Notes: generated by a model not told the origin, from the sequence alone. A DNA stretch of 64,000 nt from Solirubrobacterales bacterium (GCA_036787695.1 DAIQOT010000001.1:3843-67842), one strand, 5' to 3'. Shown: positions 20,327-35,783, counted from the first letter of the stretch. Made by a program: numbers and translations.

Positions 20327-21739
20327 TCAGTTGGGGACTGCGGAGAAGGCGTTGCGGTAGCGGTGGGCCGGGTGCTCGGGACCGACCCAGGGGCCGGCGT
20401 CGAAGAGGCGCTCGCGGAGCGTCTCGCCGGGCGTGTACTCGGCGCGGAAGCGGCCCCGGCGCCGCAGCTCCGGGACGACCAGCTCGACGAACTCGGTGAG
20501 CGTGTCGAAGCAGTGCCACTGGCGCAGGTTGATCGCGTCGAGGCCGTCGTCGTCGAGCCACGACTCGATCTCGTCGGCGACTTCGGCGGGGGTGCCGACC
20601 GCCCGATGGGGCAGGCGGAGGAAGCGGAAGCTCTCCTTCACGTCGCCGACCGTGCGGCCGCCGAAGTAGCGGACGACGCCGTCGGTCTCCGGCAGCTCGC
20701 CGGCGGCGACCAGGTCGGCGAGCGCGACGTCGTCGGCGTGCTCCTCCGGGTTCAGCTTCGATTCGGCGAAGGCGAGCGCGCCCTCGAGGGTGATGAAGGA
20801 GTCGTACTCCTCGGCCTTCGCCTGGGCCGCCTCGCGGGTCGGCCCGACGATCACGTCGACGAGCGCCGTCGTCTTCACCGAGCCGGGCGCGCGCCCGGCC
20901 TCGGCGGCGGCCTCGTGGATGCCGCGGATGTTCTCGGCGCAGTACTCGCGGGTCGGCCCGCCGACCAGGATCAGCTCGGCGTTCTTCGCCGCGAAGGCGG
21001 TGCCCCGCGCCGTCCCCGACGCCTGCGCCAGCACCGGCAGCCGCTGCGGGCCGGGGTCGACGTAGTTGGCGGCGTCGACGGTGAAGTGCTCGCCCGCGTG
21101 GCCGATCGGGTGGACGGCGCCCGGCTCGACGTAGACGCGGGCGTCCTTGTCGGCGACGACGGCGCCCTCGTCCCACGACCCCTCCCACAGCTTGTAGGCG
21201 ACGTCGATGTACTCGTCGGCGAGCGCGTAGTACTCGTCGGAGGTGAGCGGGCGCTCGCGGCCGTAGGCCCGCGCCGCCGCCGGGGTGTTGGAGAAGACGA
21301 TGTTCCAGCCCGCCAGGCCGCGGCTCAGGTGGTCGAGCGTGGAGAACGAGCGGACCACACGGTAAGGGTGCGTCCAGGTGGTCGGGACGGTGACGATGAT
21401 GCCGAGGTCGGTGGTGTTGGCGGCGATGATCCCGGCGACCAGCAGCGGGTCGTAGGCGGGGAAGAAGGCCCCGTCGCGCCCGGCCGGGTCGTAGGAGTCG
21501 CGGTGGTTGTTCGGCCCCGCCGCGAGGTCGGCGAAGAAGATCCCGTCGAGCTTGCCGCGCTCGCAGAGCTTCGCCGTCGTCGCCCAGAACTCGGGGGTGT
21601 TGAACTCCACCCGCCGGTCGCTCTTCTGCGCCCAGACGCCGTAATAGAACTGGTTGATCGTGACCGCGTCGAAGAGGAAGACGTGGGCCTGCTTCTTCCC
21701 TGACCCGGGCCCTGACCCGGGGGACGGCGCCGCGCTCAT
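20327..21739 (-). CDS. LLM flavin monooxygenase, DszA/NtaA family
   Basis: 470 aa from ATG 21739 (ATGA overlap with the upstream ABC ATPase), with GLAGWNIVFS, LPVLAQASGTARG and GLDAINL blocks. Confidence 0.83.
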   Translation of the reverse strand: MSAAPSPGSGPGSGKKQAHVFLFDAVTINQFYYGVWAQKSDRRVEFNTPEFWATTAKLCERGKLDGIFFADLAAGPNNHRDSYDPAGRDGAFFPAYDPLLVAGIIAANTTDLGIIVTVPTTWTHPYRVVRSFSTLDHLSRGLAGWNIVFSNTPAAARAYGRERPLTSDEYYALADEYIDVAYKLWEGSWDEGAVVADKDARVYVEPGAVHPIGHAGEHFTVDAANYVDPGPQRLPVLAQASGTARGTAFAAKNAELILVGGPTREYCAENIRGIHEAAAEAGRAPGSVKTTALVDVIVGPTREAAQAKAEEYDSFITLEGALAFAESKLNPEEHADDVALADLVAAGELPETDGVVRYFGGRTVGDVKESFRFLRLPHRAVGTPAEVADEIESWLDDDGLDAINLRQWHCFDTLTEFVELVVPELRRRGRFRAEYTPGETLRERLFDAGPWVGPEHPAHRYRNAFSAVPN

Positions 21740-23523
21740 GCGGCGAGCTCCTCGGAATACGGCGAGGCGCCGGCGGGACGCGGGCTGCCCTTGCGCGGCG
21801 GCCGTCCGAAGGGGCGCGGGCCGGTCGGCTCGGGACGCTCGAGCGCCGGCAGCGACTCGACCAGTTTCTTCGTGTACGGGTGATGCGGGCGCAGCAGCAC
21901 GTCGTCGGCGTCGCCGAACTCGACCACTTTGCCGTCGCACATCACCAGCACGCGGTCGGAGATGTGGTGGATGACGCCGAGGTCGTGGGAGATGAACAGG
22001 TAGGAGACGTTGAGCTCGTCCTGCAGGTCGGCGAGCAGGTCGAGGACCTGGGCCTGGATCGAGACGTCGAGCGCCGAGACCGGCTCGTCGCAGACGATCA
22101 CCCGCGGCTGCGGGCCGAGGGCGCGGGCGATCGCGACGCGCTGGCGCTGGCCGCCGGAGAGCTGCAGCGGCCGGCGGCCGAGGTGCTCGCGCTCCAGCCC
22201 GACCATCTCGAGCAGCTCGGCGATCCGCGCCTTGCGGGCGGCCTTGTTGTCATACCCCTCGCCGAGCGCGTCGAGCATGATCTGCTCGACCGTCCAGCGC
22301 GGGTCGAAGGAGCTGAGCGGGTCCTGGTAGATGACCGAGATGTCGGCGCGGCGCTTGCGGCGCTCGCGCTCGGGCAGGCCCGACCACTCCTCGCCGGCCA
22401 GCGTGACGCCGCCGCCGTCGACCTCGAGCAGGGCGAGCGCGAGCCGCGCCGTCGTCGTCTTGCCGGAGCCGGACTCGCCGACGATCCCCAGCGTCTCCCC
22501 CTGGTGCAGCTCGAAGGAGACGTCGTTGACGACCGTGCGGGTGACCCCGTCGGGACCGCGGAAGTGCTTGAACAGGCGCTCCGCCTTCAGCACCGGCGCG
22601 TCGGAATCCTCGTAGACGCGGGCGGTGCCGAGCGATGCCTTGCGCTCGACCGGCGAGAGCCGGGCGCCGCGCGACTCGGCGCTCGGGATCGCCTCGATCA
22701 GGCGCTGCGTGTACTCGTGCTCGGGGCGCGAGAAGAGCTGCGCCGCGGGCGCGTACTCGAGGATGTCGCCGTTGAACATCACCGCGACGGTGTCGGCGAG
22801 CTGCGAGACGACGGCGAGGTCGTGGCTGATCAGGATCAGAGCTTTGCCGCGCGCCTTCGCCGCCTGCAGCTGCTCGAGCACCTGCGCCTGGACGGTCATG
22901 TCGAGGGCGGTGGTCGGCTCGTCGGCGATGATCAGCTTCGGGTCCATCGCGATCGCCGAGGCGATCAGCGCGCGCTGGCGCAGCCCGCCGGAGAGCTCGT
23001 ACGGTCGCATGTGGGCGCGCACCTCGGGCTCGGGCACGCCGACCAGGTCGAGCAGCTCGATCACCCGCTCCTGACGCTCCTTCTTCGAGCCCCAGTCGTG
23101 CAGCTTCAGCGCCTCGTCGATCTCCTTGCCCACCGGCCGCAGCTGGTCGAGCGAGACCAACGCGTCCTGGAGGATGAAGCCGACGTCCTTGCCGCGCAGG
23201 CCGCGCCAGTCGCGGTCCTTGAACGAGAGCAGGTCGCGGCCGTCGAACTCCATCCGGTCGGCGCTGACGTGGGACTTGCCGCCGGTCAGCCCGACGAGGG
23301 TGCGAGCGCTGACGCTCTTCCCCGACCCGGACTCGCCGACGATCGCCAGGCACTCGCCCGGAGCCAACGAGAAGGAGACGCCGTGGACGATCTCGGTGAC
23401 GTCGCGCTTCTCGCCGAAGCCGACCCGCAGGTTCTCGACCCGGAGCAGGTCCCCTTGACCCCGGGCCTCGGGATCGCGCAGCCGCGGCTGCCCCGCGGTG
23501 CTCTCGTTCGTCGTGGTGCTCAT
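21736..23523 (-). CDS. ABC transporter ATP-binding protein with two fused nucleotide-binding domains (DppD-DppF fusion type)
   Basis: 595 aa from ATG 23523. Two Walker A motifs (GESGSGKSV and GESGSGKTT), two signature motifs (LSGGLRQR and LSGGQRQR) and two Walker B motifs. Confidence 0.9.
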   Translation of the reverse strand: MSTTTNESTAGQPRLRDPEARGQGDLLRVENLRVGFGEKRDVTEIVHGVSFSLAPGECLAIVGESGSGKSVSARTLVGLTGGKSHVSADRMEFDGRDLLSFKDRDWRGLRGKDVGFILQDALVSLDQLRPVGKEIDEALKLHDWGSKKERQERVIELLDLVGVPEPEVRAHMRPYELSGGLRQRALIASAIAMDPKLIIADEPTTALDMTVQAQVLEQLQAAKARGKALILISHDLAVVSQLADTVAVMFNGDILEYAPAAQLFSRPEHEYTQRLIEAIPSAESRGARLSPVERKASLGTARVYEDSDAPVLKAERLFKHFRGPDGVTRTVVNDVSFELHQGETLGIVGESGSGKTTTARLALALLEVDGGGVTLAGEEWSGLPERERRKRRADISVIYQDPLSSFDPRWTVEQIMLDALGEGYDNKAARKARIAELLEMVGLEREHLGRRPLQLSGGQRQRVAIARALGPQPRVIVCDEPVSALDVSIQAQVLDLLADLQDELNVSYLFISHDLGVIHHISDRVLVMCDGKVVEFGDADDVLLRPHHPYTKKLVESLPALERPEPTGPRPFGRPPRKGSPRPAGASPYSEELAA

Positions 23524-24416
23524 CGGTTGACCCCTCCTTCGAGGCGTTGCTGTACGTATCGGCCGAGGGTGGTGAGCGAGAGGGCGAACAGGACGATCGC
23601 CAGACCCGGCATCACCTCCAGCCACCAGGCTTGAGTGATGTAGTTGCGCCCGGCGTTCAGCAGGGCTCCCCACTCGGGCGAGGGCGGCGGGATGCCGAGG
23701 CCGAGGAAGGCGATCCCCGAGGCCCAGACGATCGCCTGGCCGACCCCGAGCGTGAACACGACCACCAGCGGCCGCATCGCGTTGGGGAAGATGTGCCGCC
23801 GCACGATCGAGCCATAGGGATGCCCGAGCGCTCGCGCGGCCTCCACGTATCCGGAATCGCGCGTGGCGAGGACCTGACCGCGCACCATCCGCGCGTAGCC
23901 AGGGGCCGTGCCGATTCCGACCGCGAAGATCTCGGTCGCCGCGCTGGGTCCGAAGACGGCGACGAAGAGCAGTGCCAGGAGCAGCACCGGGAAGGCGAAC
24001 ATCACCTCGACCCCGCGGCTGATGATCCCGTCGACCCACTTGTTGCCGAGGCCGGCGAGGGTGCCGAGGACGATCGCGATGCCGACGCTGACGCCGGTCG
24101 CGCCGAGGCCGATCAACAGCGACTGGCGGGCGCCGTAGACGATCCGCGCGTAGAGGTCGCGGCCCGACTGGTCGGTGCCCATGATGTGCGCCCACGAGGG
24201 CGCCTCCAGGGTCTGGCTGAGGTTGACCGCGTAGGGGTCCTGGCTGGTCAGCAGCGAGGGCACGATCATCGCGATCACGAAGAAGGCGACGATCACGCCG
24301 GCGACGATGACCCCGGGCCGCAGGCTGCGGACCCAGTCGGGGACGGTGACGCGGGAGCGGGCCGGAGCGGGGGCGCCGACGGGCGCGCCGGACGGGCTGA
24401 CGGGGGTGGCGCTCAT
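23520..24416 (-). CDS. ABC transporter permease (DppC/OppC-like)
   Basis: 298 aa, multi-TM, with MGTDQSGRD and EAARALG blocks. ATGA overlaps on both sides. Confidence 0.85.
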   Translation of the reverse strand: MSATPVSPSGAPVGAPAPARSRVTVPDWVRSLRPGVIVAGVIVAFFVIAMIVPSLLTSQDPYAVNLSQTLEAPSWAHIMGTDQSGRDLYARIVYGARQSLLIGLGATGVSVGIAIVLGTLAGLGNKWVDGIISRGVEVMFAFPVLLLALLFVAVFGPSAATEIFAVGIGTAPGYARMVRGQVLATRDSGYVEAARALGHPYGSIVRRHIFPNAMRPLVVVFTLGVGQAIVWASGIAFLGLGIPPPSPEWGALLNAGRNYITQAWWLEVMPGLAIVLFALSLTTLGRYVQQRLEGGVNR

Positions 24417-25408
24417 GCTCGCAACCTCGGGTCGATGATCGCGTAGGCAATGTCGACGAGGATGTTCGCGATCACGTAGATGAAGGCGACCAGCATCACC
24501 ACGCCGGAGACGAGCGGCACGTCGCGGTTGCTCGCCGCGGTGACGATCATCTGGCCGATGCCCGGGCGGGCGAAGACCGTCTCGACGATCACCGCGCCGG
24601 AGATCAGCGCGCCGAGCGCCCAGCCCGACAGCGTCACCGCCGGCAGCACCGCGTGGCGCAGCACGTGCTTCACCCGCACGGCGAAGTCACCCATCCCACG
24701 GGCCCGCGCCGAGGTGACGAAAGGCTGGTCGAGCACCTTTTCGAACTCGTCGCGGGTCACCTGGCCGATGAACCCGGCGAGCGGGATCGCCAGCGTCAGC
24801 GCCGGCAGCACCAGGCCCTCGATGCTGGTCCCTCCCTGCACCGGGAAGATCTTCAGTTCGATCGAGAAGACGACCAACAGGATCACCCCGAGCCAGTAGT
24901 AGGGCAGGCCGGCGCTGAAGATCTCCCATCCCGAGCCGAGGGTGGAGATCACCTTTTTTCGTCTCGAGGTGAGCAAGATCGTGGTTAACGCGAACACCCA
25001 GGCGAGGATCAGCGCCGTCACCGTCAGCACCAGCGTCGGGCCGACCTGTTCGCCGATGATCGTGAGCACCGGCTTGTGCTGCTGGTAGGAGTCGCCGAGG
25101 TCACCGTGGGCGAGGCCCTTGATGTATTCGAAGTACTGCGTGGTGACCGGCTCGTCGAAACCGTACTTTTCTTCGACCGGCTTCAGCTGGGCCGCGTTGT
25201 AGGTCTGCTGGGTGCCGTGTTCCTGGTTGAGGATCAGCGTCGCTTTGCTGCCGGGCAGCAGCTCCTGCACGAAGAACGTGAAGGTGGCCGCCGCCCAGAG
25301 CACGAAGATCGCGCCGAGGATCCGCCAGGCGATCCGTTTCAGCCAGGGAGCACGGCGCGGCTTGACGCCGATCGCCGTGGTCCCCGGGGTCTCCGCGAAG
25401 GTGCCCAT
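24413..25408 (-). CDS. ABC transporter permease (DppB/OppB-like)
   Basis: 331 aa, multi-TM, with FVTSARARGMGDFAVRVKHVLRHA block. Confidence 0.85.
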   Translation of the reverse strand: MGTFAETPGTTAIGVKPRRAPWLKRIAWRILGAIFVLWAAATFTFFVQELLPGSKATLILNQEHGTQQTYNAAQLKPVEEKYGFDEPVTTQYFEYIKGLAHGDLGDSYQQHKPVLTIIGEQVGPTLVLTVTALILAWVFALTTILLTSRRKKVISTLGSGWEIFSAGLPYYWLGVILLVVFSIELKIFPVQGGTSIEGLVLPALTLAIPLAGFIGQVTRDEFEKVLDQPFVTSARARGMGDFAVRVKHVLRHAVLPAVTLSGWALGALISGAVIVETVFARPGIGQMIVTAASNRDVPLVSGVVMLVAFIYVIANILVDIAYAIIDPRLRA

Positions 25409-25411
25409 GGA

Positions 25412-27187
25412 TCAGCCTTCGTTGCCGAAGTAGGCGTCCGAGAAGACGGGCTCACCCTGCGACGCCTCGAGCCAGACGTCGTGCAGGTTCTTTTCCACCG
25501 CCAGGGAGGTTTCCTGGACGTACACCCCGACCACCGCCGCCTGTTCTTTCGTGACTATCTGCTGGGCGGCGAAGTAGTTCTTTTTCTGCTCGGCCGGATC
25601 GGCGCTGCTGTTGCCTTTTTCGATCAGGCTGACCAATTTGTCGCTGTTGTAGAAGGACTGGTTGTTGCCGTTCGGTTCGGTTTTCGAGTTCCACGGCTTC
25701 CAGACGATCAGCAACACGGCCGGGCTGGGTGAGGTCCAGTAACCGATCGTCGCGTCGTATTTGTCGGGCGCCGCGTATTCGCCGCTGAACAGCTGGGTCA
25801 GCGTGGCGGGCTTCAGTTCGACGTTGAAGCCGACTTCCTTCCACTGTGACTGCAGGTCCTCGAGCACGGTCGCGCCTTCGGTGGTGATCAGCGAGCCGGC
25901 TCCGTAGACGAGTTTGATGTTCAGCTGCTTGCCGTCTTTTTCGCGGATGCCGCCGCTGCCGACCTTCCAACCGGCCTGGTCGAGGAGCTGTTCGGCTTTT
26001 TCGGGGTTGTAGGGCCAGGTTTCTTCGAGCGAGGGATCCTGCATCGGCGTCGACTGGCTGAGCGCGCCGTTGCCGTTGTAGGGGACCTTGCCTTCGAAGG
26101 CGCTTTCGACGGCGGCCTTGCGGTCGGCGCCGTAGGCGAACGCTTCGCGCACCGGGAGTTCGGCGAACGGGCCCTGGTTGGTGTTGAGGTCGAGCGTGAC
26201 CGGGCGGCCCGGGGTGATGTACTGCTGCACTTCGTAGTTTTCCTGTGCCGCGGCCCAGTCGGGAGCGGGGACGTCGTAGATCACGTTCGACTGGCCGGTG
26301 GTCAACGAGCCGTACCGGGTGGTCGGATCGGCGACGTAGCTCCAGATCAGTTTTTCGGCGTAGGCCGGGCCCTGATGAAGGGCGTTGGACGGCGCCGAGT
26401 TGTAGTTCGGGTTACGGCTGAAGGTGATGTTCTGGCCGTGGGTCCACTTGTCGATGATCCACGGGCCGCTGCCGATCGGTTCGTTGCAGATCGCTTCCGG
26501 GCCCGCGGCGTACGTCGCCGGCGCGAGGATGCCGTCGTAGCCCTGCGAGATCGAGGAGAGCAGCGGCGCGTACGGTTTGAACAGCGTCACCTGCACCGTC
26601 GTCGGGTTGATCGCTTTCGACGACTTGTAGTAGTTGTGCAGGAAGGGAGCGACGCCGTTGCCGTTGCTCGGGTCCGACCAGTATTCGAAGTTTTTGACCA
26701 CCGCTTTGGCGTCGAGCGGTTCGCCGTTGGTGAATTTGACGCCCGGCTTCAGGTGGAAGGTCCAGGTGAGGCCGTCCTTGGAGGTGTCCCAGGAGGTCGC
26801 CAGCCAGGGGACGATCTTGCCGGTTTTCGTCTGCGAGACGAGCTCGTCGGCGTACTGACGCTCGATGAACGCCTCCTGCACCCAACCACCGGTCAGGCAG
26901 GGAGTTTCCTGCTCGTGTGCGTAGTTGATCGTGCCGCCCTGTTTCGGCGTCCCGGTGTTGTCGGAGACGGTGGCGGCTTCGGCGCCGGCGACGTTGCCGG
27001 AGTTGGTACCTGACGCACCCCCCGCCGCGCCCGTCGCCGACGAACCACCGCCACAGGCGGAGAGCACGAGGGCGAGGGTGAGTGCCATGGCGGCGGCAAT
27101 GCCACTCAGGGTCGCGCGGCGGGGAGTCCGCGGGTGGGTACTGCTGGAGGAGAGGTTCTTGTCTTGTCTATTCATGTCACGGTCCAT
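25412..27187 (-). CDS. ABC transporter substrate-binding lipoprotein, family 5
   Basis: 591 aa with signal peptide and lipobox LSAC. SBP_bac_5-like throughout. Confidence 0.88.
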   Translation of the reverse strand: MDRDMNRQDKNLSSSSTHPRTPRRATLSGIAAAMALTLALVLSACGGGSSATGAAGGASGTNSGNVAGAEAATVSDNTGTPKQGGTINYAHEQETPCLTGGWVQEAFIERQYADELVSQTKTGKIVPWLATSWDTSKDGLTWTFHLKPGVKFTNGEPLDAKAVVKNFEYWSDPSNGNGVAPFLHNYYKSSKAINPTTVQVTLFKPYAPLLSSISQGYDGILAPATYAAGPEAICNEPIGSGPWIIDKWTHGQNITFSRNPNYNSAPSNALHQGPAYAEKLIWSYVADPTTRYGSLTTGQSNVIYDVPAPDWAAAQENYEVQQYITPGRPVTLDLNTNQGPFAELPVREAFAYGADRKAAVESAFEGKVPYNGNGALSQSTPMQDPSLEETWPYNPEKAEQLLDQAGWKVGSGGIREKDGKQLNIKLVYGAGSLITTEGATVLEDLQSQWKEVGFNVELKPATLTQLFSGEYAAPDKYDATIGYWTSPSPAVLLIVWKPWNSKTEPNGNNQSFYNSDKLVSLIEKGNSSADPAEQKKNYFAAQQIVTKEQAAVVGVYVQETSLAVEKNLHDVWLEASQGEPVFSDAYFGNEG

Positions 27188-27268
27188 ACTGGAGTAAGTT
27201 GACCAGGTAAGTCGTAAAAGAGGTATGGCTTTACCCGGTTGGGGAAACGGACGTTTGGAAGGTGTGCT

Positions 27269-28654
27269 CTAGGCCGCTACGGGAGCGGGCGCGGCATCGG
27301 TGAAAGCACCGCGGTACTGGGCGGCGGGGTGACGCTCGGTGAGGCGGTCGTGGCCGAAGAGCTTGTTCCGCAGCGTGCCCTCGCGGTAGCCGTCGGCGGC
27401 GAGGCCGCGCTCGCGTAGCGTCGGCATCACGTGGTCGATGAAGTCCTGGTAGCTGCCGGGGATCACCGCGTTGATCACGTTGACCCCGTCCACCCCGGCC
27501 TCGCGGTACTCGGCCAGCCGGTCGGCGATCTGCTCGGGGGTGCCGACGACGCGGGTGCGGCGGCTCATCAGGTGCATCACGTCGCGCACCGTCGGGTCGC
27601 CGCCGCCGGCCGCCTCGCGCAGCCACTGGAGGATGCCCTGGACGCCTTCGGTCGAGACCGCGTCGAGCGAGTCGTCGGGGTCGAGGCCGCCGAGGTCGAC
27701 GCCGATCGCTCCGCCCATGTGGGCGACCATCCCGTCGACGTCGATCTTCTCTTCGAGCTCGCGCTCGTTGCGCAGCGCCTCCTCCTCGGTCGAGCCGACA
27801 ACGAACGAGAGGCCCTGGAAGAACTTGATTTCGTCGCGCGTCCGCCCGTGCTTCTCGAGCAGGTCCCGCGTCTCGGTGATCTGCCTCCGCGCGTCGTCAG
27901 TTGAGGGGCTCTGGATGAACTGCGCCTCGGCGTGGCGGGCGCAGAAATCGCGGCCGACCGGCGAGGAGCCGGCCTGGAAGAGCAGCGGCGTGCGCTGCGG
28001 CGACGGCGTCACCAGGAACGGGCCCTCGCACTTGAAGTGCTCGCCGACGTGGTTGATCGGGTGGATCTTCGAGGGGTCGGCGTGGAAGCCCGACTCGCGG
28101 TCGGCGAGCAGCGCGTCCTCGTCCCACGATCCCTCCCACAGCTTGTAGAGGACTTCGAGGTACTCGTCGGCGATCGCGTAGCGGGTGTCGTGGGCGGGCA
28201 TCCCCTCCCAGCCGAGGTTGCGCCAGCCGTTCGGGTTCGCCCCGGTGACGATGTTCCAGGCGATCCGCCCGCGCGTCGCGTGGTCGAGCGTCGCCATCTG
28301 GCGGGCGAACTGGAAGGGCGGCGACTGGGCGAAGCCGAGGGTGACCGCGAGGCCGAGGTTCTTCGTCGCCGCGGCGAGCGCCGAGATGATCACCATCGGG
28401 TCGTTGGAGGGGATCTGCAGGCCGAGCTCCTCGTGGAACTCGGGGCCGCCGCGGAAGTCCGGGTAGAGGCCGATCACGTCGGCGAAGAAGGCCGCGTCGA
28501 AGCCGCCCGCCTCGAGTCGCTGGGCGAGGTCGATCCACATCTCGAGCTCGTTGAAGCGCAGCTGGTTGCCCTCGGGGTCGCGCCAGAGCCCGTGGATGAT
28601 GTGGGACGGCGTGTTCATCACGAAGGCGCAGAAGTTCAGTGGCTGGTCGTTCAT
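27269..28654 (-). CDS. LLM flavin monooxygenase, DszA/NtaA family
   Basis: 461 aa with NFCAFVMNTPSHIIHGLW, GRIAWNIVTG and TPLLFQAGSSPVGRDF blocks. Confidence 0.85.
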   Translation of the reverse strand: MNDQPLNFCAFVMNTPSHIIHGLWRDPEGNQLRFNELEMWIDLAQRLEAGGFDAAFFADVIGLYPDFRGGPEFHEELGLQIPSNDPMVIISALAAATKNLGLAVTLGFAQSPPFQFARQMATLDHATRGRIAWNIVTGANPNGWRNLGWEGMPAHDTRYAIADEYLEVLYKLWEGSWDEDALLADRESGFHADPSKIHPINHVGEHFKCEGPFLVTPSPQRTPLLFQAGSSPVGRDFCARHAEAQFIQSPSTDDARRQITETRDLLEKHGRTRDEIKFFQGLSFVVGSTEEEALRNERELEEKIDVDGMVAHMGGAIGVDLGGLDPDDSLDAVSTEGVQGILQWLREAAGGGDPTVRDVMHLMSRRTRVVGTPEQIADRLAEYREAGVDGVNVINAVIPGSYQDFIDHVMPTLRERGLAADGYREGTLRNKLFGHDRLTERHPAAQYRGAFTDAAPAPVAA

Positions 28655-28723: not shown

Positions 28724-29401
28724 TCAGGCGGCGAGGACTGTCGCGGCGCGCTGCGCGGCCTCGGTGCGGTTGCGGACGCCGAGCTTGCGATAGAGCGCGG
28801 TGGCGCTCTTCTTGACGCTGTCGGGGCCGAGGTGGAGGCGCTCGGCGATCTCGCGGTTGGTCTTGCCGGTGCCGAGCAGGAGCAGGATCTCGCGCTCGCG
28901 GTCGGAGAGGTCGAGGCCGCCGGCGGGGGCGGTGACCGGCAGGTCGAGCGGCTCGCCGGAGAGCACCGCGGCGCGGACCGAGTCGATCACTTCCTCGCCG
29001 GAGACGCCGGCGGGGAGGAAGCCGATCGCGCCGAGGCTGGCGGGCGTCGCCCCGGGTGTGGTGCGGCAGCGCGAGGTGAGCAGGATCTGCACGCCCGGGT
29101 GGGCCTCGCGGATCGCCGCCGTGATCGAGCCGGCGAAGGGGCCGATCTGGGAGATGTCAAGGATCGCCACGTCGGGCCGGTGGCGTCGGGTCAGCGTCAC
29201 CGATTCGGTGCTGTCGGCGGCGAGCAGGCAGCGTTCGATCCACGGCTGCTCGTCGAGGAGGGCGGCGAGGCCGATCCGGCTGGGCGCATGGGCGTCGATC
29301 ACGATCGCCCGGACCGAGGCGTCGGGGAGCGCGTCGGCGTCATCGAGCGGGGGCACGGCGGCGAGCGGTGGGGTCGGCAGATCGAGTTCGGCGGTCGGCA
29401 T
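28724..29401 (-). CDS. LuxR/NarL-type response-regulator-like protein with atypical receiver domain
   Basis: The C-terminal HTH (LSDREREILLLLGTGKTNREIAERLHLGPDSVKKSATALYRKLGV) is LuxR-type. The N-terminal receiver-like domain reads IVIDAH and DVAILDIS. Start taken as ATG 29401. TTG 29413 is the ORF-track start. Confidence 0.75.
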   Translation of the reverse strand: MPTAELDLPTPPLAAVPPLDDADALPDASVRAIVIDAHAPSRIGLAALLDEQPWIERCLLAADSTESVTLTRRHRPDVAILDISQIGPFAGSITAAIREAHPGVQILLTSRCRTTPGATPASLGAIGFLPAGVSGEEVIDSVRAAVLSGEPLDLPVTAPAGGLDLSDREREILLLLGTGKTNREIAERLHLGPDSVKKSATALYRKLGVRNRTEAAQRAATVLAA

Positions 29402-29402
29402 C

Positions 29403-30572
29403 TCAAGCGGCAAGATCGTCCTCCTCGATCTGGATCTGGCTGTAGGAGCCGCGGTAGAAGAGCAGCGGCTTGGCGCCCGGCTCGCGGTGCTCGAGGTGCT
29501 GGGCGAAGCCGACGACGATCTCGTGGTCGCCCGCCGGGTAGATCGACTGGACGTCGCAGGCGATCGTCGCCAGCGCCCCCGGGATCGTCGGCACGCCGAG
29601 GTCGTGGTCGTTGAACTCGACCTCGTGGGAGCGGACGGCGTCGCCCTTCTTGGCGAAGCGGTCGGAGTGGTGGCGCTGCTCGTCGGCGAGGATGTTGATC
29701 GCGAGACGGCCCGTCTCGCGGATCGCCGCCAGGGTCTCGGAGTTGCGCGCCAGGCAGGCGAGCAGCAGCGGCGGGTCGAGCGACACCGAGGAGATCGCGT
29801 TGGCCGTCGTGCCGACCGGCTTGCCGTCGCCGTCGCGCGCGGTGATCACCGAGACGCCGGTGGCGAAGTGGCCCATCACGTCGCGCATCAGCCGGCCGGT
29901 CTTGGCGATCTCGGCGGCGGCCGCGGGAGCCGCGGCGCGGACGTGCCGGGCGACGTCGGAGACGTCGAGGATCGCGAGGCCGTGGCGGGTGGCGAAGACC
30001 TCGAGGTCCTCCCCGGTCGCCATGTGGCCGTCCTCCCTCATCACCTGGCAGAGGACGCCGGCGCCGCGGAGACCGGCGACGCCGGTCAGCTCGACCGCCG
30101 CCTCGGTGCGGCCGGCGCGCTCGAGGATCCCGCCGGGACGCGCCCGCAGGGGGAAGATGTGTCCGGGCACGACGAGGTCGGCGGGGCCGCTCGCCGGGTC
30201 GGCGGCGACGGCGATCGTGCGGGCGCGGTCGCCGGCCGAGATGCCGGTGGTGACGCCCTCCTTCGCCTCGATCGAGACCATCGCCGAGTCGCCGAGGCTC
30301 GACTGGTTGCCGCGGTTGCCGATCTGCTCGAGGCCGAGTTCGACACAGCGCTCGGTCGAGAGCGCGACGCAGACGAGGCCGCGCGCCTCGGTGACCATGA
30401 AGTTGACCGCGTCGGCGTCGGCGAACTCGGCGGCGATGAGGAGGTCCCCCTCCCCCTGGCGCTCTGAGTCGTCGCGCAGCAGGACCATGCGGCCCGCGGC
30501 GAGCTCGTCGGTGGCGAGGGTGAAGGCGTCGGGCGCGGCGGGGATGTCGGGAACGAGGTCGAGCGGGTTCAT
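29403..30572 (-). CDS. Fusion protein: RibB-like domain + flavin reductase domain, paralog 2
   Basis: Same 1170-nt length as 2158-3327 when started at ATG 30572 (GGAGAA Shine-Dalgarno upstream). Same motif set (RQGEGD, PGHIFPL, AGRTEAAVEL, GHFATGVSVIT). Confidence 0.85.
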   Translation of the reverse strand: MNPLDLVPDIPAAPDAFTLATDELAAGRMVLLRDDSERQGEGDLLIAAEFADADAVNFMVTEARGLVCVALSTERCVELGLEQIGNRGNQSSLGDSAMVSIEAKEGVTTGISAGDRARTIAVAADPASGPADLVVPGHIFPLRARPGGILERAGRTEAAVELTGVAGLRGAGVLCQVMREDGHMATGEDLEVFATRHGLAILDVSDVARHVRAAAPAAAAEIAKTGRLMRDVMGHFATGVSVITARDGDGKPVGTTANAISSVSLDPPLLLACLARNSETLAAIRETGRLAINILADEQRHHSDRFAKKGDAVRSHEVEFNDHDLGVPTIPGALATIACDVQSIYPAGDHEIVVGFAQHLEHREPGAKPLLFYRGSYSQIQIEEDDLAA

Positions 30573-30624
30573 CGGGGGGTTCTCCATCGGTGGGTGGTGG
30601 GGCGAAGTCGGTGCGGGGCGGAGA

Positions 30625-32088
30625 TCACGCGGCCTCCCACTCGGTGGGAGAGCCGACCGAGTGCAGGCGGGTCGGCAGCGGGATCTCCTCGGTTTCGCCG
30701 GTGCGGACGATCTTGCGGGCGACGGCGCCGGAGTGGTCGCGGATCTCGGTGATCCCGATCGCCTCCCACTCGACGCCGCGGCGGAGGCTGCCGATCGCGA
30801 AGAGGCGTTCGGAGGGGTTGCCCTCGCGGTCGAGCAGCGCGCCGTGGTCGTCGACGTCGACGCCGAGGCCGAGGTCGTCGGGACGGGCGCGCCCCGCGCT
30901 GAGCAGCCCGGCGAGGACCGGCGGCGCCTGCCGGCGCAGGTCGTAGCCGGCGCCGGCGCAGTTGAGCACCCGGTCGACTTCGACCGACTCCAGCTCGTGG
31001 GCTCCGGGCTTGCGGAGGAAGACGCGGGCGCGGGAGCCGTGCGGCTCGACCGAGACGATCGAGGCGGCCCCGGTCTCCAGTCGCCCGCCGGCGACGAGCG
31101 CCTCGTAGCGGTCGGAAACCTCGGGCGCCATGCGGAAGCGGTGGACGTCCCAGAGACGCTGGTACTCGGTGAGGAACCGTTCCTTTTCGGTCAGCGACAA
31201 CGCCTTCCAGAGCGCCGGCGTCGCCGGCCGCATCGAGTCGATCACGTCGCGCCAGTCGTCGCCCTGCTGGGCGACGCGGCAGATCTGGGCGAAGATCGCG
31301 CCGACCATCGGCTCGACCGTCCCGGTCTCGGTCGGGATGTGGAAGCGGCGCAGGTTGGTCAGGTCGGTGCGGTGGCGGCGCGGGATCAGGCCGTGGCGGG
31401 AGACCGCGCGGATCCGCGGGCCGTCGGGCGCCTCGCCGAGCGAGAGCGCGACGTCGACCATCGAGAGACCGGTGCCGACGATCAGCACCGAGCGCGAGCG
31501 GCGCGCGTCCTCGAGCGCCCCCGCCTCCCAGGGATCGGCGATCCAGGTGCCCGCGGCCTTCAACTCCGGCGGCACCTCGATCGGGTCGCCGGCGATCAGC
31601 GGGCCGAGCGCCAGGATCACGCGGTCGGCCTCGATCCGCTCGCCGTCGGCGAGGGACAGCTCGAGCGGCGCCGACGCGTTGCCGAAGTGCTCGGCGATCG
31701 CCGTCACCTCGCCGGCGTGGCGGCGCAGGCGGGCGCTCGACGCCTCGCGCTCGGCGGTGGCCAGCAGGTCGCGTATGTAGGTGGCGTAGAGGCCGCGCGG
31801 CAGGAACGCTTCCTCGGCGACCGGTTCGCCGCGCCCGGCGAGCCACTCGTGGAAATGCTCCGGGTGCCCATGGATCGCCCCCATCCGCACGGCGGGGACG
31901 TTCAGCAGGTGGAGCGGGTCCTGGGTGCCGTAGGCGACGCCGCCGCCGAAGCTGCCGGTGCGGTCGATCAGGTCGATCTCCAGCGCCCCGCGTTCGCGGT
32001 GCTCGCGCAGCAGGTGGACGGCGGCGAGCGTCCCGGCGGCCCCGCCGCCGACGATCGCGATGCGCTGGGTGGCCTCGGCCGCGCTCAC
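30625..32088 (-). CDS. FAD/NAD(P)-binding oxidoreductase (PF13454-like), paralog 2
   Basis: 487 aa with IAIVGGGAAG and LIVGTGLSMVD. Collinear with 3380-4840. GTGA overlap with the upstream ssuD-like gene. Confidence 0.72.
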   Translation of the reverse strand: MSAAEATQRIAIVGGGAAGTLAAVHLLREHRERGALEIDLIDRTGSFGGGVAYGTQDPLHLLNVPAVRMGAIHGHPEHFHEWLAGRGEPVAEEAFLPRGLYATYIRDLLATAEREASSARLRRHAGEVTAIAEHFGNASAPLELSLADGERIEADRVILALGPLIAGDPIEVPPELKAAGTWIADPWEAGALEDARRSRSVLIVGTGLSMVDVALSLGEAPDGPRIRAVSRHGLIPRRHRTDLTNLRRFHIPTETGTVEPMVGAIFAQICRVAQQGDDWRDVIDSMRPATPALWKALSLTEKERFLTEYQRLWDVHRFRMAPEVSDRYEALVAGGRLETGAASIVSVEPHGSRARVFLRKPGAHELESVEVDRVLNCAGAGYDLRRQAPPVLAGLLSAGRARPDDLGLGVDVDDHGALLDREGNPSERLFAIGSLRRGVEWEAIGITEIRDHSGAVARKIVRTGETEEIPLPTRLHSVGSPTEWEAA

Positions 32089-33254
32089 CGCTGGGCCCCC
32101 ACGGCGAAGGGGACCGCGGTGCCCTGGCGGCCGCCGGAGGTGGCGGCCCCGGTCGCGTCAGGCGGTGACCAGAGCCCGCGGCGCTCGAGCAGCGGCAGGA
32201 CGCCCTCGCCGAACCAGTAGAGCTCCTCCAGGTGCGGGTAGCCGGAGAGGACGAACTCCTCGATCCCGGCGTCGGCGTACTCCTCGATCCGCCCGGCGAC
32301 CTCGGCGTGCGAGCCGACCAGCGCGGTGCCGGCCCCGCCGCGTCCGAGGCCGACCCCGGCCCAGAGGTTGGGGTAGACCTCGAGGCCGTCGCGCGAGCCG
32401 CCGTGGAGCTCGGTCATGCGGCGCTGGCCCTCCGACTCCGACCGGCGGAGCTTCGCCTGGACCTGGGCGATCGTCTCCGCGGGGACCGAGTCGAGCAGGC
32501 GCTCGGCCTCCGCCCAGGCGGCGGCGTCGGTGTCGCGGGAGATCGTGTGGAGGCGGATGCCGAAGCGCACCTCGCGGCCACGCTCCGCCGCCGCCTCCCT
32601 GACCCGCCCGATCTTCTCGGCGACCGCGGCGGGCGGCTCGCCCCAGGTGAGGTAGACGTCGACGTGCTCGGCGGCGACCTCGATCCCGGCGGGCGAGGAG
32701 CCGCCGAAGTAGATCTCCGGGCGCGGGTCGGGGAGGCGGTGGATGGTGGCGCCCTCGACCCGCAGGTGCTCGCCGGCGAAGTCGACGCTCTCGCCGTCCC
32801 AGAGGCGGGAGACGATCTCGAGGAACTCGCCGGTCCGGACGTAGCGCTCCTCCTTGCCGAGGAAGTCGCCGAAGGCGCGCTGTTCGGCCGCGTCGCCGCC
32901 GGTCACCACGTTGAGGAGCAGGCGCCCGTTGGAGTGCCACTGGAAGGTCGCGGCCATCTGCGCGGCGAGCGTCGGGCTGACCAGGCCGGGACGGAAGGCG
33001 ACCAGGAACTTGAGCCGCTCGGAGGTCTCCGCGAGCATCGCGGTGACCACCCAGGCGTCGTCGCACCAGCCGCCGGTCGGGGTGAGCGCCGCCTCGAAGC
33101 CGAGGTCCTCGGCGGCGGTGGCGACGCGGGTCAGGTAGGCGACCGAGGCCTCGCGCAGGCCTCCGGCGGTCCCCGCAGGGGGCGCCTCGCCGGTCTCGAT
33201 CAGGCCGCGGCCGTCGCCCTGGGTGGGCAGGAACCAGTGGAACTTCAGGGGCAT
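32085..33254 (-). CDS. SsuD-type LLM monooxygenase, paralog 3
   Basis: MPLKFHWFLPTQGD at ATG 33254, preceded by a GAGGAG Shine-Dalgarno. NVVTGGD and SESEGQRRM blocks are present. ATG 33275 is the ORF-track start. Confidence 0.85.
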   Translation of the reverse strand: MPLKFHWFLPTQGDGRGLIETGEAPPAGTAGGLREASVAYLTRVATAAEDLGFEAALTPTGGWCDDAWVVTAMLAETSERLKFLVAFRPGLVSPTLAAQMAATFQWHSNGRLLLNVVTGGDAAEQRAFGDFLGKEERYVRTGEFLEIVSRLWDGESVDFAGEHLRVEGATIHRLPDPRPEIYFGGSSPAGIEVAAEHVDVYLTWGEPPAAVAEKIGRVREAAAERGREVRFGIRLHTISRDTDAAAWAEAERLLDSVPAETIAQVQAKLRRSESEGQRRMTELHGGSRDGLEVYPNLWAGVGLGRGGAGTALVGSHAEVAGRIEEYADAGIEEFVLSGYPHLEELYWFGEGVLPLLERRGLWSPPDATGAATSGGRQGTAVPFAVGAQR

Positions 33255-33281
33255 GGAACTCCTCGCGTCAGTCATCAGAGG

Positions 33282-34688
33282 TCAGGCCGCCCGAGCCCCG
33301 GCGGCGAGCGCCTCGGCCTCGCCGAGTCGGCGGTAGGAGGCGCCGGGGTGGCTCTCGGGGAGGCGCGGACCGGCGCCGAAGAGCTTCTCCCGCAGCGTCC
33401 CCGGCCCGTACTCGGTGGGCGCGACGCCGCGGCGCTGCAGCTCCGGGATCAGGTGCTCGACCAGGTCGACGAAGGTGCCGGGCGTGATCGCGTAGGCGAG
33501 GTTGAAGCCGTCGACGTCGGAGTAGTCGATCCACTCCTGCATGTGGTCGGCGACTTCGGCGGCGGAGCCGACGGTGCGCGGGCCGAGGCCGCCGATGCCG
33601 CCCCAGCGGGCGATGTCGCGGACCTTCCACTCGCCGCCCTCGGGGTCGGCCTGCTGGAAGGCGGCGACGGCGGAGTGGATCGCGTTCGACTCGACCTCGC
33701 CGATCGGGTCGTCGAGGCTGTACCGGGAGAGGTCGACGCCCATCCAGCCGGAGAAGAGGGTGAGCGCGGCCTCGTCGTCGGCGTAGCGCTCGAGGTCGTC
33801 GTGCTTGGCCCAGGCCTTCTCTTTCGTCTCGTCGACGATCGCCGTCAGCAGGGTGTAGATGCGGGCGTCGTAGGGGTCGCGGCCGACCTCGACCATGCGC
33901 CGGCGGATGTCGCCGACGACCTCTTTGAGGATCTCCTTGGTCGGCGCCGCGGTGAAGATCGCCTCGGCGTGCTCGGCGGCGAACTGACGGCCGCGGCTGG
34001 AGGCGCCGGCCTGGTAGATCACCGGGCTGCGCTGCGGCGAGGGCTCCGACAGGTGGATGCCGGGGACCTTGAAGAACTCGCCGTCGTGGCCGATCCCGTG
34101 GACCTTGCTCGGGTCGGTGAAGATGCCGGCGGCGCGGTCGCGGATCACCGCGTCGTCCTCCCAACTCCCCTCCCAGAGCTTGTAACAGACCTCGAGGTAC
34201 TCGTCGGCGACGTCGTAGCGGTTGTCGTGGTTGAGCTGGTCGGCCTCGCCCATGTTCTCGGCGCCGCTCTTCAGGTAGGAGGTGACGACGTTCCAGCCGA
34301 CGCGGCCGTCGGTGAGGTGGTCGAGCGTCGACATCCGGCGGGCGAAGGGATAGGGGTGCTCGAAGGAGATCGAGGCGGTGAGGCCGAAGCCGAGGCCCTC
34401 GGTGACCGCGGCCATCGCCGAGACCAGCATCGCCGGGTCGTTGACCGGGACCTGGGTGGCGTGACGGACCGTCGCGTCGCGGTTGCCGCCGTAGACGTCG
34501 TAGATGCCGAGTACGTCGGCGATGAAGAGCCCGTCGAAGCGTCCCCGCTCCAGGAGCTGCGCCAGGTCGGTCCAGTAGGAGAGCTTCTTGTAGTCCCAGG
34601 CGTGGTCGTCCGGATGCCGCCAGAGGCCCGGCGACTGGTGGGCGACGCAGTTCATGTCGAAGGCGTTTAGGCGGATCGGTCTGGGCAT
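33282..34688 (-). CDS. LLM flavin monooxygenase, DszA/NtaA family
   Basis: 468 aa with NAFDMNCVAHQSPGLW, GRVGWNVVTSY and SPVIYQAGASSRGRQFAA blocks. First gene of the long minus-strand array. Confidence 0.85.
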   Translation of the reverse strand: MPRPIRLNAFDMNCVAHQSPGLWRHPDDHAWDYKKLSYWTDLAQLLERGRFDGLFIADVLGIYDVYGGNRDATVRHATQVPVNDPAMLVSAMAAVTEGLGFGLTASISFEHPYPFARRMSTLDHLTDGRVGWNVVTSYLKSGAENMGEADQLNHDNRYDVADEYLEVCYKLWEGSWEDDAVIRDRAAGIFTDPSKVHGIGHDGEFFKVPGIHLSEPSPQRSPVIYQAGASSRGRQFAAEHAEAIFTAAPTKEILKEVVGDIRRRMVEVGRDPYDARIYTLLTAIVDETKEKAWAKHDDLERYADDEAALTLFSGWMGVDLSRYSLDDPIGEVESNAIHSAVAAFQQADPEGGEWKVRDIARWGGIGGLGPRTVGSAAEVADHMQEWIDYSDVDGFNLAYAITPGTFVDLVEHLIPELQRRGVAPTEYGPGTLREKLFGAGPRLPESHPGASYRRLGEAEALAAGARAA

Positions 34689-34868: not shown

Positions 34869-35783
34869 ATGCGAATCCAGCAGCTCGAATACGCCGTCGC
34901 CGTCGCCCGCTTCGGCTCCTTCCGCCGCGCCGCCGAGGCGCTCCATCTCTCCCAGCCCGCGCTGAGCGAGAACGTGCGGCGGCTGGAGCGGGAGCTCGGG
35001 GTCGAGATCCTCGACCGGCGGCGCTCCGGGGCGACCGTGGGCGAGCACGGGCGCGAGCTCCTCCCCCACATGCTCGCCGTGATCGAGGCCGCCGACACGC
35101 TGAAGCGGGCCGCCGACGAGAGCCGCCAGCTGAGCCGCACGGTGCGGGTCGGGACGGTGACCGCGGCGACGGTGCCGCTGCTCGCGCCGACGATCCACGC
35201 CTTCCGCGACTCCCACCCGACGACCCTGGTCGAGATCCTCACCGCCCAGCAGACGGGCATCCACCGGGCGCTGCTCGAGGGCTCGATGGACCTCGGCCTC
35301 GTCAACTACCTCGACGGCGACGACATGCCGCCCGAGTTCGAGTCGACCGAGCTCCTCCGCGGCCACCCCGTGGTCTGCCTCCGCCCCGACGACGACCTCG
35401 CCTCCTCGAAGACGATCCGCAGCGCCGACCTCTGGGGCCAGCCACTCATCGCGATGCGCGCCGGCTACGTCATGCACCGCTACGTCATGCGCCTGCTCGA
35501 CGGCCGCGAGCCGACCTTCTCCTACTCCGCCGACGGCGCCGAGATGGGCAAGCTGATGGTCGCCGCCGGCCTCGGCATCGCCGTCCTCCCCGACTACTCC
35601 GTCGTCGGCGACCCCCTCGAGCGCAGCGGCGAGATCACCTACCGCCCCCTCTCCGACGACCTGACCAACGTCCTGCTGGTGCTGCAGCGCCGCCGCTCCG
35701 CCCCGGCCAACAACGCGATCAGCGACCTGCACGATCTGTTTGTGGCCGAAGCCGGACGAGCGAGCGAGGTCGCCGCGGCCTGA
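34869..35783 (+). CDS. LysR-family transcriptional regulator
   Basis: The N-terminal HTH (MRIQQLEYAVAVARFGSFRRAAEALHLSQPALSENVRRLE) is canonical LysR. It is divergent from the sulfur cluster. Confidence 0.9.
   Translation: MRIQQLEYAVAVARFGSFRRAAEALHLSQPALSENVRRLERELGVEILDRRRSGATVGEHGRELLPHMLAVIEAADTLKRAADESRQLSRTVRVGTVTAATVPLLAPTIHAFRDSHPTTLVEILTAQQTGIHRALLEGSMDLGLVNYLDGDDMPPEFESTELLRGHPVVCLRPDDDLASSKTIRSADLWGQPLIAMRAGYVMHRYVMRLLDGREPTFSYSADGAEMGKLMVAAGLGIAVLPDYSVVGDPLERSGEITYRPLSDDLTNVLLVLQRRRSAPANNAISDLHDLFVAEAGRASEVAAA

Follow-up and report, generated by a model that had tools for sequence, protein, structure and literature searches.

Organosulfur compounds make up the main pool of sulfur in soil, where Actinomycetota such as the Solirubrobacterales are abundant. 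To our knowledge, the enzymology by which this sulfur is scavenged (ssu, tau, msu, sfn and dsz) comes almost wholly from Proteobacteria, Bacillus and Rhodococcus. The closest described systems to the one treated here are the msuEDC, ssuEADCBF and sfnFG genes of Pseudomonas, E. coli and Acinetobacter, in which sulfur is oxidised stepwise and the C–S bond is then cleaved to give sulfite. The stretch that we analysed (the window) is 64,000 nt of DNA with a G+C content of 70% from a Solirubrobacterales bacterium (GCA_036787695.1, DAIQOT010000001.1:3843-67842). In it a gene pair occurs twice, in loci that we call A and B. The first gene of the pair encodes an FAD/NAD(P)H flavoprotein (FPMO), and the second a RibB-like domain fused to a flavin reductase (RibB*-FlaRed).

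The window shares with the msu, ssu and sfn systems the SsuD/MsuD-like luciferase-like monooxygenases (LLMs), an MsuE/SsuE-like FMN reductase, LLMs of the NtaA/DszA/SfnG type, a LysR regulator, an ABC importer within the operon and, it appears, the same order of chemical steps. It departs from them in that its SsuD-like proteins score below the NCBIfam equivalog cutoffs, its importers are of the Dpp/Opp (SBP_bac_5) type rather than SsuABC, an ACAD-type MsuC is missing from the window, and a predicted class B-like flavoprotein and a fusion of RibB* to an HpaC-type reductase are added. Two-component organosulfur-scavenging operons are known; these two additions are new, are undescribed for the msu, ssu and sfn systems, and recur in the sulfur-scavenging operons of the Solirubrobacterales. 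The setting of both pairs is a flavin-dependent organosulfur-scavenging island. We give roughly even weight to the proposal that the pair is the conserved core of a Solirubrobacterales-like extension of FMNH2-dependent scavenging of the ssu/msu/dsz kind, in which it would combine S-oxygenation with flavin supply. The elements of the two pairs are the following.

30625..32088, minus strand: FPMO_A, 487 aa, PF13454 (Pfam, Foldseek, family profile against the PDB)
30573..30624, minus strand: spacer A, 52 nt, equal in length to spacer B, with GGAG before the fusion ATG
29403..30572, minus strand: RibB*-FlaRed_A, with RibB* at aa 1-215 and an HpaC-type reductase at aa 229-389 (Pfam, motifs)
3380..4840, minus strand: FPMO_B, 486 aa, paralog of FPMO_A (77% identity, PF13454 match)
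3328..3379, minus strand: spacer B, 52 nt (pair alignment)
2158..3327, minus strand: RibB*-FlaRed_B, 389 aa, paralog of the fusion in A (82% identity, substitutions as in copy A)

A preliminary description of this DNA had reported two collinear gene pairs, 30625-32088/29403-30572 (locus A) and 3380-4840/2158-3327 (locus B), and all four minus-strand open reading frames (ORFs) were confirmed. The DNA of the two pairs aligns as a single collinear block of 2675 nt with 83.6% identity (E = 0), and the homology ceases at the pair boundaries. The fusion genes measure 1170 nt each (389 aa plus stop) and their products align without gaps, while the FPMOs differ by one residue in length. The spacers are identical at 33 of 52 positions, with GGAG about 8 nt 5′ of the ATG. 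The equal fusion length and the homologous spacer reported earlier are thus borne out, as is the differing gene content around the pairs (the locus 1 of that description is our B, and its locus 2 our A). A duplication of this kind is far beyond chance. A longer fusion ORF, starting at 30587, is present in copy A, but the start at 30572 is common to both copies. Copies A and B are about equidistant from the copies in other genomes, and the assignment of orthology is ambiguous.

The 3′ boundary of the block is also shared. The fusion C-terminus, IEED[D/E]LAA followed by the stop, is kept in A and B, and its DNA includes GAGGAGGA and the TTG start of the next gene, which overlaps the fusion stop by 11 nt in both copies (29403-29413 and 2158-2168). 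The proteins encoded 3′ of the fusion begin with LPL in both loci though they are unrelated: locus A encodes a GerE regulator there and locus B an FMN reductase (FMN_red). Since the ortholog loci run fusion, FMN_red, GerE, it seems that FMN_red was lost from locus A through a precise deletion.

For the distribution of the pair, species-representative genomes were scanned from the FPMO side with a 12-sequence alignment, and the neighbourhoods were probed by tblastn; L-numbers designate loci in other genomes. A PF13454 gene lies beside RibB*-FlaRed in 11 loci outside the window (L001-L007, L087, L089, L090 and L093), which span 42–79% identity and include one rearranged locus (L007) and one in which the parts of the fusion are separate genes (L093). 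The idea that the pair is retained as a cassette is upheld by these loci together with the block duplication. An LLM adjoins the pair wherever the upstream gene is visible, mostly an SsuD-like one, and an NtaA-type one in L004 and L087. The order LLM, FPMO, RibB*-FlaRed is found in L001-L006, L087 and L090. In the close orthologs (L001-L003, L005 and L006, 57–79% identity) the LLM is SsuD-like; FMN_red and then GerE follow in L001-L003 and L005, and L006 has FMN_red without a GerE match by tblastn. In L004 the SsuD-like gene, FMN_red and GerE are all absent, and the LLMs lying upstream are of NtaA type. The SsuD-like gene and FPMO are retained in L007 (42% identity), where the fusion lies upstream and is divergently transcribed. 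In L089, FPMO is followed by the fusion and the contig ends just upstream; there, as in L087 and L090, the PF13454 gene is directly 5′ of the fusion with a 4-nt overlap. Since a single contig of another metagenome-assembled genome (MAG) carries the pair twice, as L001 and L004, the two-copy state is not unique to the window genome. These ortholog counts overstate independence, because the close ortholog loci are phylogenetically related and belong to one order.

The RibB*-FlaRed architecture appears confined to Solirubrobacterales-like genomes, and within them the linkage of the pair is strong, not absolute. In the clade of L083/L084 and L088 the flavoprotein that accompanies the fusion, either next to it or 2.4 kb off, is an FMO-like enzyme of class B (PF00743), and the PF13454 partner thus appears, from the sequences, to have been swapped for another class B enzyme; L088 (2924-7892) is a short contig that carries no LLM and does not extend to any rpo/rps genes. 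Most of the sampled loci pair the fusion with a flavoprotein of class B type. The expectation that the two families would co-occur with an LLM beside them is therefore upheld, with the reservation that the fusion is also found with the FMO-like partner or with none.

The wider FPMO family is large, with 8134 clusters at 50% identity and E < 1e-3, and 2687 with E < 1e-30; P-numbers designate representatives of such clusters. Its domain fusions, in relatives with 33–43% identity to the window protein, bear repeatedly on sulfur. FPMO is covalently joined to an HpaC-type reductase in two close-lying lineages, and P0261 and P0252 (about 40% identity) are Flavin_Reduct-PF13454 fusions. The former lies beside a sulfonate-type (NMT1) ABC transporter, a gene for a persulfide dioxygenase (PDO) with rhodanese, and an Rrf2 regulator. 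The latter lies 3′ of FMN_red, near an arylsulfotransferase, a GST, an NMT1-type transporter and an LLM, in the MAG that also holds L007. NMT1-type transporters were seen just in the distant loci L082 and L091. Six members (P0326, P0338, L008, L009, L012 and L022) carry an N-terminal extension of about 155 aa, which resembles cysteine dioxygenase (CDO) wherever it was matched; L008 gave no match. The fused CDO is a true type 1 enzyme that retains the His ligands of the iron, the Cys and the Tyr of YSPP, and in further loci a CDO gene is adjacent to the FPMO gene. In about 27 of 80 loci, mostly cyanobacterial, FPMO is fused or adjacent to an MBL domain. The one such domain tested, that of L027, matches ETHE1-type PDO (E 1e-65 to 1e-71), and a rhodanese domain is added to the FPMO-MBL fusion in at least two loci (L054 and L055). 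Taken over L001-L081, FPMO is linked in 41 of 81 loci to enzymes that form sulfinate (CDO) or sulfite (PDO, SsuD-like LLM).

These distant members, fused to CDO type 1 or to ETHE1-type PDO with or without rhodanese, recall SQR-PDO-rhodanese modules and the chemistry of CDO and FMO1. Unlike in those systems, the window FPMOs are unfused to such enzymes and their fold ranking is not SQR-like. FMO1, a class B enzyme, converts hypotaurine to taurine and is a precedent for S-oxygenation of a sulfinate. The fusions to CDO, PDO, rhodanese and flavin reductase make a sulfur role of this orphan family directly testable. A Pfam census of the neighbours of 75 distant loci found no new recurrent family, none occurring in more than 3 of 96 ORFs, so that context is uninformative for stand-alone members (Sphingomonas, myxobacteria and others). 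A 928-aa ORF in L074 (9935-12721) consists of FPMO and a C-terminal extension of about 460 aa that matched neither the MBL nor the rhodanese probes; this extension may be a further fusion partner.

Does the adjacency of the two genes reflect a specific partnership? The fusion might instead serve the operon's LLMs at large as their flavin reductase, with FPMO an independent member of the same regulon and the adjacency of the two simply inherited. The kinship of the close ortholog loci, all from one order, speaks for this, as does the arrangement in L085/L086, where the fusion stands with LLM and ACAD genes and no such flavoprotein. NtaA/DszA-type LLMs, moreover, classically rely on PF01613 reductases. 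A single reductase is also known to serve many sulfur monooxygenases (PMC13352529). Against it, the pair was duplicated exactly as a two-gene block and outlasts the rearrangement in L007, and where PF13454 is missing an FMO-like class B flavoprotein adjoins the fusion with no LLM near. Independent lineages also join a PF01613 domain to the same flavoprotein family, and this covalent joining of reductase and FPMO elsewhere suggests, on the sequences, a closer partnership. We therefore consider a merely inherited adjacency unlikely, though it deserves serious weight, and retain the proposal that the pair works as one core.

What, then, is FPMO? The two proteins score 128 and 118 bits for PF13454 (NAD_binding_9, an FAD-NAD(P)-binding family; cutoff 21.8), and a phmmer search of FPMO against the PDB found no match. 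AlphaFold (AF2), given 38 homologs, yielded a model of moderate quality (pLDDT 70.7, pTM 0.71). The top Foldseek match of this model is FzmM, an aspartate N-hydroxylase (8cp2; E 3e-20, TM 0.62-0.68), followed by the N-hydroxylases DesB, SidA, PvdA and KtzI, with dihydrolipoamide-dehydrogenase-type folds lower in the ranking (TM ~0.45). A family profile of 52 diverse members likewise finds FzmM best in the PDB (E 3.5e-24, a partial match in two stretches) and shows weaker similarity to FSP1, AIF, ferredoxin reductases and CoA-disulfide reductase.

The motifs agree with this placement. The FAD motif GGGAAG has invariant G14, G16 and G19, and in the second dinucleotide motif, GTGLSMVD, which aligns to GLGLNFFD of FzmM, G205-x-G207 is invariant. 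N63 (HLLNVPA), invariant in the 52-sequence alignment, aligns to Asn62 of FzmM, and Y53 to Trp51. In FzmM, which is strictly NADPH-dependent, Asn62 lies above the flavin C4a and is critical in class B monooxygenases, while Trp51 holds the nicotinamide. Between the Rossmann domains the AF2 model places helices (aa 258-333, a region of low confidence), and this insert has invariant R280, R287, H316, R317 and R319; the corresponding Arg cluster of FzmM binds the acidic substrate and specifically bound sulfate. FzmM Arg13 is replaced by Ala in FPMO (in GGGAAG), a comparison that covers Arg13 alone of the five Asp-binding residues. C377 of FPMO is nearly invariant and is located in a generic 'ATG'-type linker motif, and FPMO has neither a CxxxxC pair nor an N-terminal redox Cys. 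The dN/dS ratio between FPMO_A and FPMO_B is 0.44.

Because fold, profile, Asn63 and NADPH motif agree with FzmM, FPMO is predicted to be a class B-type FAD/NAD(P)H monooxygenase; it is no FzmM ortholog. With the N-oxygenases FzmM, CreE and PcxL it has in common PF13454, two dinucleotide-binding domains, the catalytic Asn, the type of NADPH motif and, as far as the low-confidence region of the AF2 model suggests, a putative helical, Arg-rich substrate domain. It differs from these enzymes of about 600 aa in its 487 aa, in being matched only remotely by profile, and in its context of sulfur scavenging as against the nitrogen chemistry of natural products. Literature searches on PF13454, YdhS and COG4529 gave nothing relevant to the function of this family, and those on bacterial sulfinate flavoprotein oxygenases nothing relevant either. 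Of the earlier guess that the large protein is an S-oxygenating flavoprotein, the oxygenase half is favoured by the FzmM-like fold and profile and the invariant Asn; the sulfur half meets the difficulty that the closest characterised relatives are N-hydroxylases.

It could be, accordingly, that FPMO is an N-hydroxylase or N-oxygenase acting on an amino-sulfonate, an amino-sulfinate or an unrelated amine, its link to C–S cleavage being indirect; taurine, hypotaurine, cysteate and cysteine sulfinate, an aspartate look-alike, would be candidate substrates. FzmM is the closest solved homolog and ornithine, lysine and putrescine N-hydroxylases come next, the compound oxidised by PcxL, which belongs to the same subgroup, is 2-aminoethylphosphonate, in which a phosphonate stands in place of the sulfonate of taurine, and the CDO-fused relatives would make cysteine sulfinate, an aspartate isostere. 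The similarity to FzmM is remote, however, given the absence of a phmmer match and the partial profile match, and the aspartate-binding Arg13 (the one residue compared) is Ala. The PDO and rhodanese fusion partners follow no amine logic, and no CreD/FzmL-like lyase was seen in the loci. On balance this explanation seems to us quite unlikely, and a sulfur substrate for FPMO remains our preferred reading. The chance that FPMO is no oxygenase and instead an NAD(P)H-linked sulfide, persulfide or disulfide oxidoreductase, standing in for SQR or CoADR, is slight: the FPMO-PDO-rhodanese fusions resemble the SQR-PDO-rhodanese trio, weak profile similarity extends to FSP1, AIF, ferredoxin reductases and CoA-disulfide reductase, and C377 is nearly invariant, but class B monooxygenases top the fold and profile ranking well above the dihydrolipoamide-dehydrogenase-type folds, the class B catalytic Asn is invariant, the cysteine pair and N-terminal redox Cys are missing, and C377 belongs to a generic linker motif. 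An SQR-like or disulfide-reductase identity was rejected on fold ranking and motifs.

In the fusion protein Pfam recognises DHBP_synthase and Flavin_Reduct. The N-terminal domain scores 220 bits for PF00926 and 184 bits for TIGR00506 (cutoff 177), and the C-terminal domain 134 bits for PF01613, as a flavin reductase of the HpaC/DszD/NtaB/StyB type. SLDPP and AGDHEI, which represent the SxxPP motif (for flavin) and the GDH motif (for NAD(P)H), do not vary among 33 compared fusions drawn from several clades. The PF01613 domain, both motifs and flavin monooxygenase partners are common to HpaC, DszD, NtaB and StyB, and StyA2B is a natural fusion of oxygenase and reductase. Unlike in the HpaC and StyA2B systems, whose oxygenases are two-component enzymes of class C, D or E, the reductase here is joined to a degenerate RibB, and the oxygenase would be class B-like and would contain an NAD(P)H domain itself.

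RibB* shares its fold and pocket motifs with RibB and RibBA, and its operon is tied to LLMs and a flavin reductase; unlike RibBA, it is without the GTP-cyclohydrolase II half, the PF01613 reductase taking that place, and unlike RibB it has Glu39, His154 and Glu175 replaced. Glu175 is a catalytic residue of 3,4-dihydroxy-2-butanone 4-phosphate (DHBP) synthase. In the V. cholerae enzyme, Glu39 ligates both metal ions and His154 one, and mutation of either abolishes activity there and in M. jannaschii (PMC5228156). The window fusion reads RQGEGD, GRTEA and LCQ, against canonical RENEGD, GHTEA and (I/L)CE. Among 120 close homologs, R, Q, A, M, H or K stands at the Glu39 position, 116 have Arg for His154, and all have Gln for Glu175 (E. 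coli Glu174). Across clades the loss of catalytic residues is stepwise: the P0426 clade has near-canonical ERDREGD, GHTEA and CE, the P0443 clade DRGGEGD, GRTEA and CE, the window clade the residues just given, and the clade of L007 HSKTDGD, GHVEA and CQ. None of the 33 fusions departs from SIEA, TTGISAxDRA and PGHxFPL, the motifs of the pocket, and dN/dS between the window copies is 0.42 for RibB* and 0.37 for the reductase domain. RibB* is kept under selection, but almost certainly not as a DHBP synthase, since the Mg-binding catalytic residues are replaced; the wording 'RibB-like' in the preliminary description was an apt caution for a domain without the metal ligands of that enzyme.

The origin of the fusion is revealed by L093, which runs MetNIQ-type importer, NtaA-type LLM, SsuD-like LLM, FPMO, RibBA and a separate flavin reductase. 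Its FPMO is 59% identical to that of the window, its RibBA is canonical and bifunctional (ERENEGD, GHTEA, ICE and a GTP cyclohydrolase II domain), and its RibB half and flavin reductase are 55% and 57% identical to the corresponding halves of the window fusion. Because L093 keeps RibBA and reductase as separate genes at the same position, the fusion is taken to have arisen when the RibA half was lost and RibB became joined to the reductase. RibB* is a clean example of a domain retained despite the loss of its catalytic residues, traceable stepwise from an operon-embedded ribBA. Literature searches on fusions of RibB with flavin reductases yielded nothing relevant. B. subtilis ribR, within the ytmI sulfur operon, is another riboflavin gene embedded in a flavin-dependent operon. 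As a separate observation, L013 (4620-8300) of a Coleofasciculaceae member runs ACAD, FPMO and FMN_red, with a canonical ribBA about 0.8 kb downstream of FPMO; this proximity is possibly coincidental, or else another link of riboflavin synthesis to the module.

That the RibB-like domain is an active DHBP synthase boosting the supply of riboflavin and FMN, as ribB does in lux-rib operons, is highly improbable: the Pfam and TIGR00506 scores exceed their cutoffs, the pocket motifs are invariant, L093 has a canonical RibBA at this position, and riboflavin genes are linked to LLM operons elsewhere (lux-rib, B. subtilis ribR), but the metal ligands Glu39 and His154, whose mutation kills activity, are replaced, Glu175 is Gln, and the Glu39 position is variable even inside the clade. 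With these residues replaced, the active reading was rejected.

Returning to the proposal that the pair couples S-oxygenation with flavin supply, FPMO would use NAD(P)H and O2 to place oxygen onto the sulfur of a small, probably anionic organosulfur compound. It may oxidise sulfinate to sulfonate, the task of MsuC in Pseudomonas, or thioether to sulfoxide or sulfone, or both, and the neighbouring SsuD-like LLM would then release sulfite from the product by desulfonation. A possible route thus leads from a sulfone, by an NtaA/DszA-type LLM, to a sulfinate, by FPMO to a sulfonate, and by the SsuD-like LLM to sulfite. The pathway has its precedent in msuEDC, SfnG and MsuC, with a parallel in the sequence SfnG-MsuC-MsuD/SsuD (PMC13352529). 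Oxidation of R-SO2- to R-SO3- would be the simplest single chemistry to fit all three partner contexts: a sulfinate before SsuD-type cleavage, cysteine sulfinate or hypotaurine after CDO, and possibly sulfite after PDO. Oxygenation of a thioether or sulfoxide is an equally allowed variant. Locus B could be read as an msuE-msuD unit with FPMO replacing msuC.

The reductase domain would feed reduced flavin (FMNH2) to the LLMs of the operon and possibly work directly with FPMO. The RibB domain, derived from the operon-resident ribBA, probably served at first to raise the flavin supply; today it is perhaps a dimerisation module, or, speculatively, a binder of pentulose phosphate or of the ribityl phosphate of FMN. 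The specific assignment of FPMO as a sulfinate oxygenase is tentative, and we would not call it probable. It is tempting to extend it to the whole PF13454 subfamily (COG4529, 'YdhS-like'), whose members would be unrecognised bacterial S-oxygenases of sulfinate, sulfite or low-valent sulfur that round off the oxidation of thiols by way of sulfinate to sulfonate or sulfate, with the HpaC-type reductase an obligate partner and, in Solirubrobacterales, the dead RibB captured by that reductase to bind FMN or a pentulose phosphate. They might then be a bacterial counterpart of FMO1 and a non-orthologous replacement of MsuC, wired to CDO, PDO or SsuD according to lineage. This broader claim, in both its parts, is rather doubtful. 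If the S-oxygenase idea is true, thousands of orphan genes gain a function, and the poorly defined step from sulfinate to sulfonate is filled.

Several observations weigh against such a role. The conversion of methanesulfinate to methanesulfonate can proceed with no enzyme devoted to it, and mutants in MsuC are little affected (PMC13352529); a sulfinate oxygenase is therefore not strictly needed. No biochemical characterisation of this PF13454 subfamily was found in the literature, the characterised relatives FzmM, CreE, PcxL, SidA and PvdA all oxygenate nitrogen, and the AF2 model that connects FPMO to FzmM is only moderate (TM 0.62-0.68). Why a class B enzyme should require a flavin reductase when it has an NADPH site itself is not obvious, which leaves the recurrent fusion of reductase and FPMO unexplained. 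In L083/L084 (8001-10710) the fusion is flanked by rpoBC on one side and rpsL-rpsG on the other, with LLM genes missing nearby, and L085/L086 (LysR, fusion, LLM, ACAD, LLM) manage without such a flavoprotein. ACAD-type oxygenases occur alongside the pair in L001, L004, L006, L089 and L090, so that the pair and MsuC-like genes are not complementary in distribution. About half of the distant family members are without informative neighbours. Finally, the Cys+Met content of the operon proteins, 1.74% as against 2.16%, is not significantly lower (p = 0.14).

Both copies sit within long minus-strand gene runs, whose remaining members and flanking regulator are listed below.

33282..34688, minus strand: NtaA/DmoA(DszA)-family LLM, first gene of operon A (TIGR03860, 558 bits)
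32085..33275, minus strand: SsuD-like LLM of locus A (NCBIfam 472 bits, cutoff 510); its stop overlaps the FPMO_A start by 4 nt
28724..29413, minus strand: GerE/LuxR-type, response-regulator-like regulator with TTG start and an 11-nt overlap with the fusion end
15948..28654, minus strand: rest of the locus A run, with an NtaA-family LLM, a Dpp/Opp-type ABC importer and four LLMs
34869..35783, plus strand: divergent LysR-type regulator, also at this position in L001-L003, L005-L006 and L087
1551..2168, minus strand: FMN_red, an MsuE/SsuE-like NAD(P)H:FMN reductase (PF03358; NCBIfam MsuE 90 bits, cutoff 212)
427..1551, minus strand: SsuD-like LLM of locus B (NCBIfam alkanesulfonate monooxygenase 445 bits, cutoff 510)
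4967..6082, minus strand: divergent SsuD/SfnG-like LLM directly upstream of FPMO_B
6072..11417, minus strand: locus B Dpp/Opp-type ABC importer, with two ATPases, two permeases and a family-5 solute-binding protein

Of the 11 LLM genes in the window, nine are SsuD-like or of NtaA/DmoA type and belong to the two loci; one LLM gene (53987-54868) lies outside both. The SsuD-like LLMs of loci A and B are 58% identical, and the SsuD-like proteins reach 439-472 bits on two alkanesulfonate-monooxygenase models, below the equivalog cutoffs of 510-518. Downstream of the locus A importer stand four tandem LLMs (15948-21940; three NtaA/DmoA-type, one SsuD-like), several with long N-terminal extensions and hence uncertain starts. 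No ACAD-type oxygenase of the MsuC, SfnB or DszC kind was found in the window, an SsuABC (NMT1-type) sulfonate transporter is absent from both loci, where the importers are of the Dpp/Opp type, and the loci showed no lyase of the CreD/FzmL kind, which would handle nitro compounds or nitrite.

A scan for promoters gave just one plausible site, at 34741-34770 on the minus strand, 5′ of operon A, and a terminator scan gave matches at chance level. Upstream of FPMO_B, 4841-4966 includes about 100 nt of unusually AT-rich DNA (…TTCAACGCCAATTACACCCTTTTGCGGCAAGAATGATCGGGTAATAGTGG…), which stands out against the 70% GC of the genome. This stretch is likely an internal promoter or operator; with an internal promoter there, FPMO_B would head a separate unit of four genes that continues with the fusion, FMN_red and the SsuD-like gene.

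Further genes of the window may be mentioned. A TauE/SafE-family sulfite exporter gene (51486-52238, minus strand), about 16 kb from operon A, fits a neighbourhood that produces sulfite. Near the LysR gene are a Dcm-type C-5 cytosine DNA methylase (35954-37147, plus strand) and a Vsr (very-short-patch repair) endonuclease (37644-38072, minus strand), and the same neighbourhood of LysR, methylase and Vsr is present in L001, from another MAG. Because an F420H2-dependent quinone reductase (PF04075) is encoded at 37144-37647 on the minus strand, the organism probably uses coenzyme F420, a caveat for genes of the LLM family; the window LLMs match FMN-dependent subfamilies. Lastly, 40261-44847 (minus strand) encodes a protein of 1528 aa with an SdiA-regulated-like N-terminal domain, four lamin-tail (LTD) domains and collagen triple-helix repeats, which is probably secreted or surface-located and unconnected with the pair.

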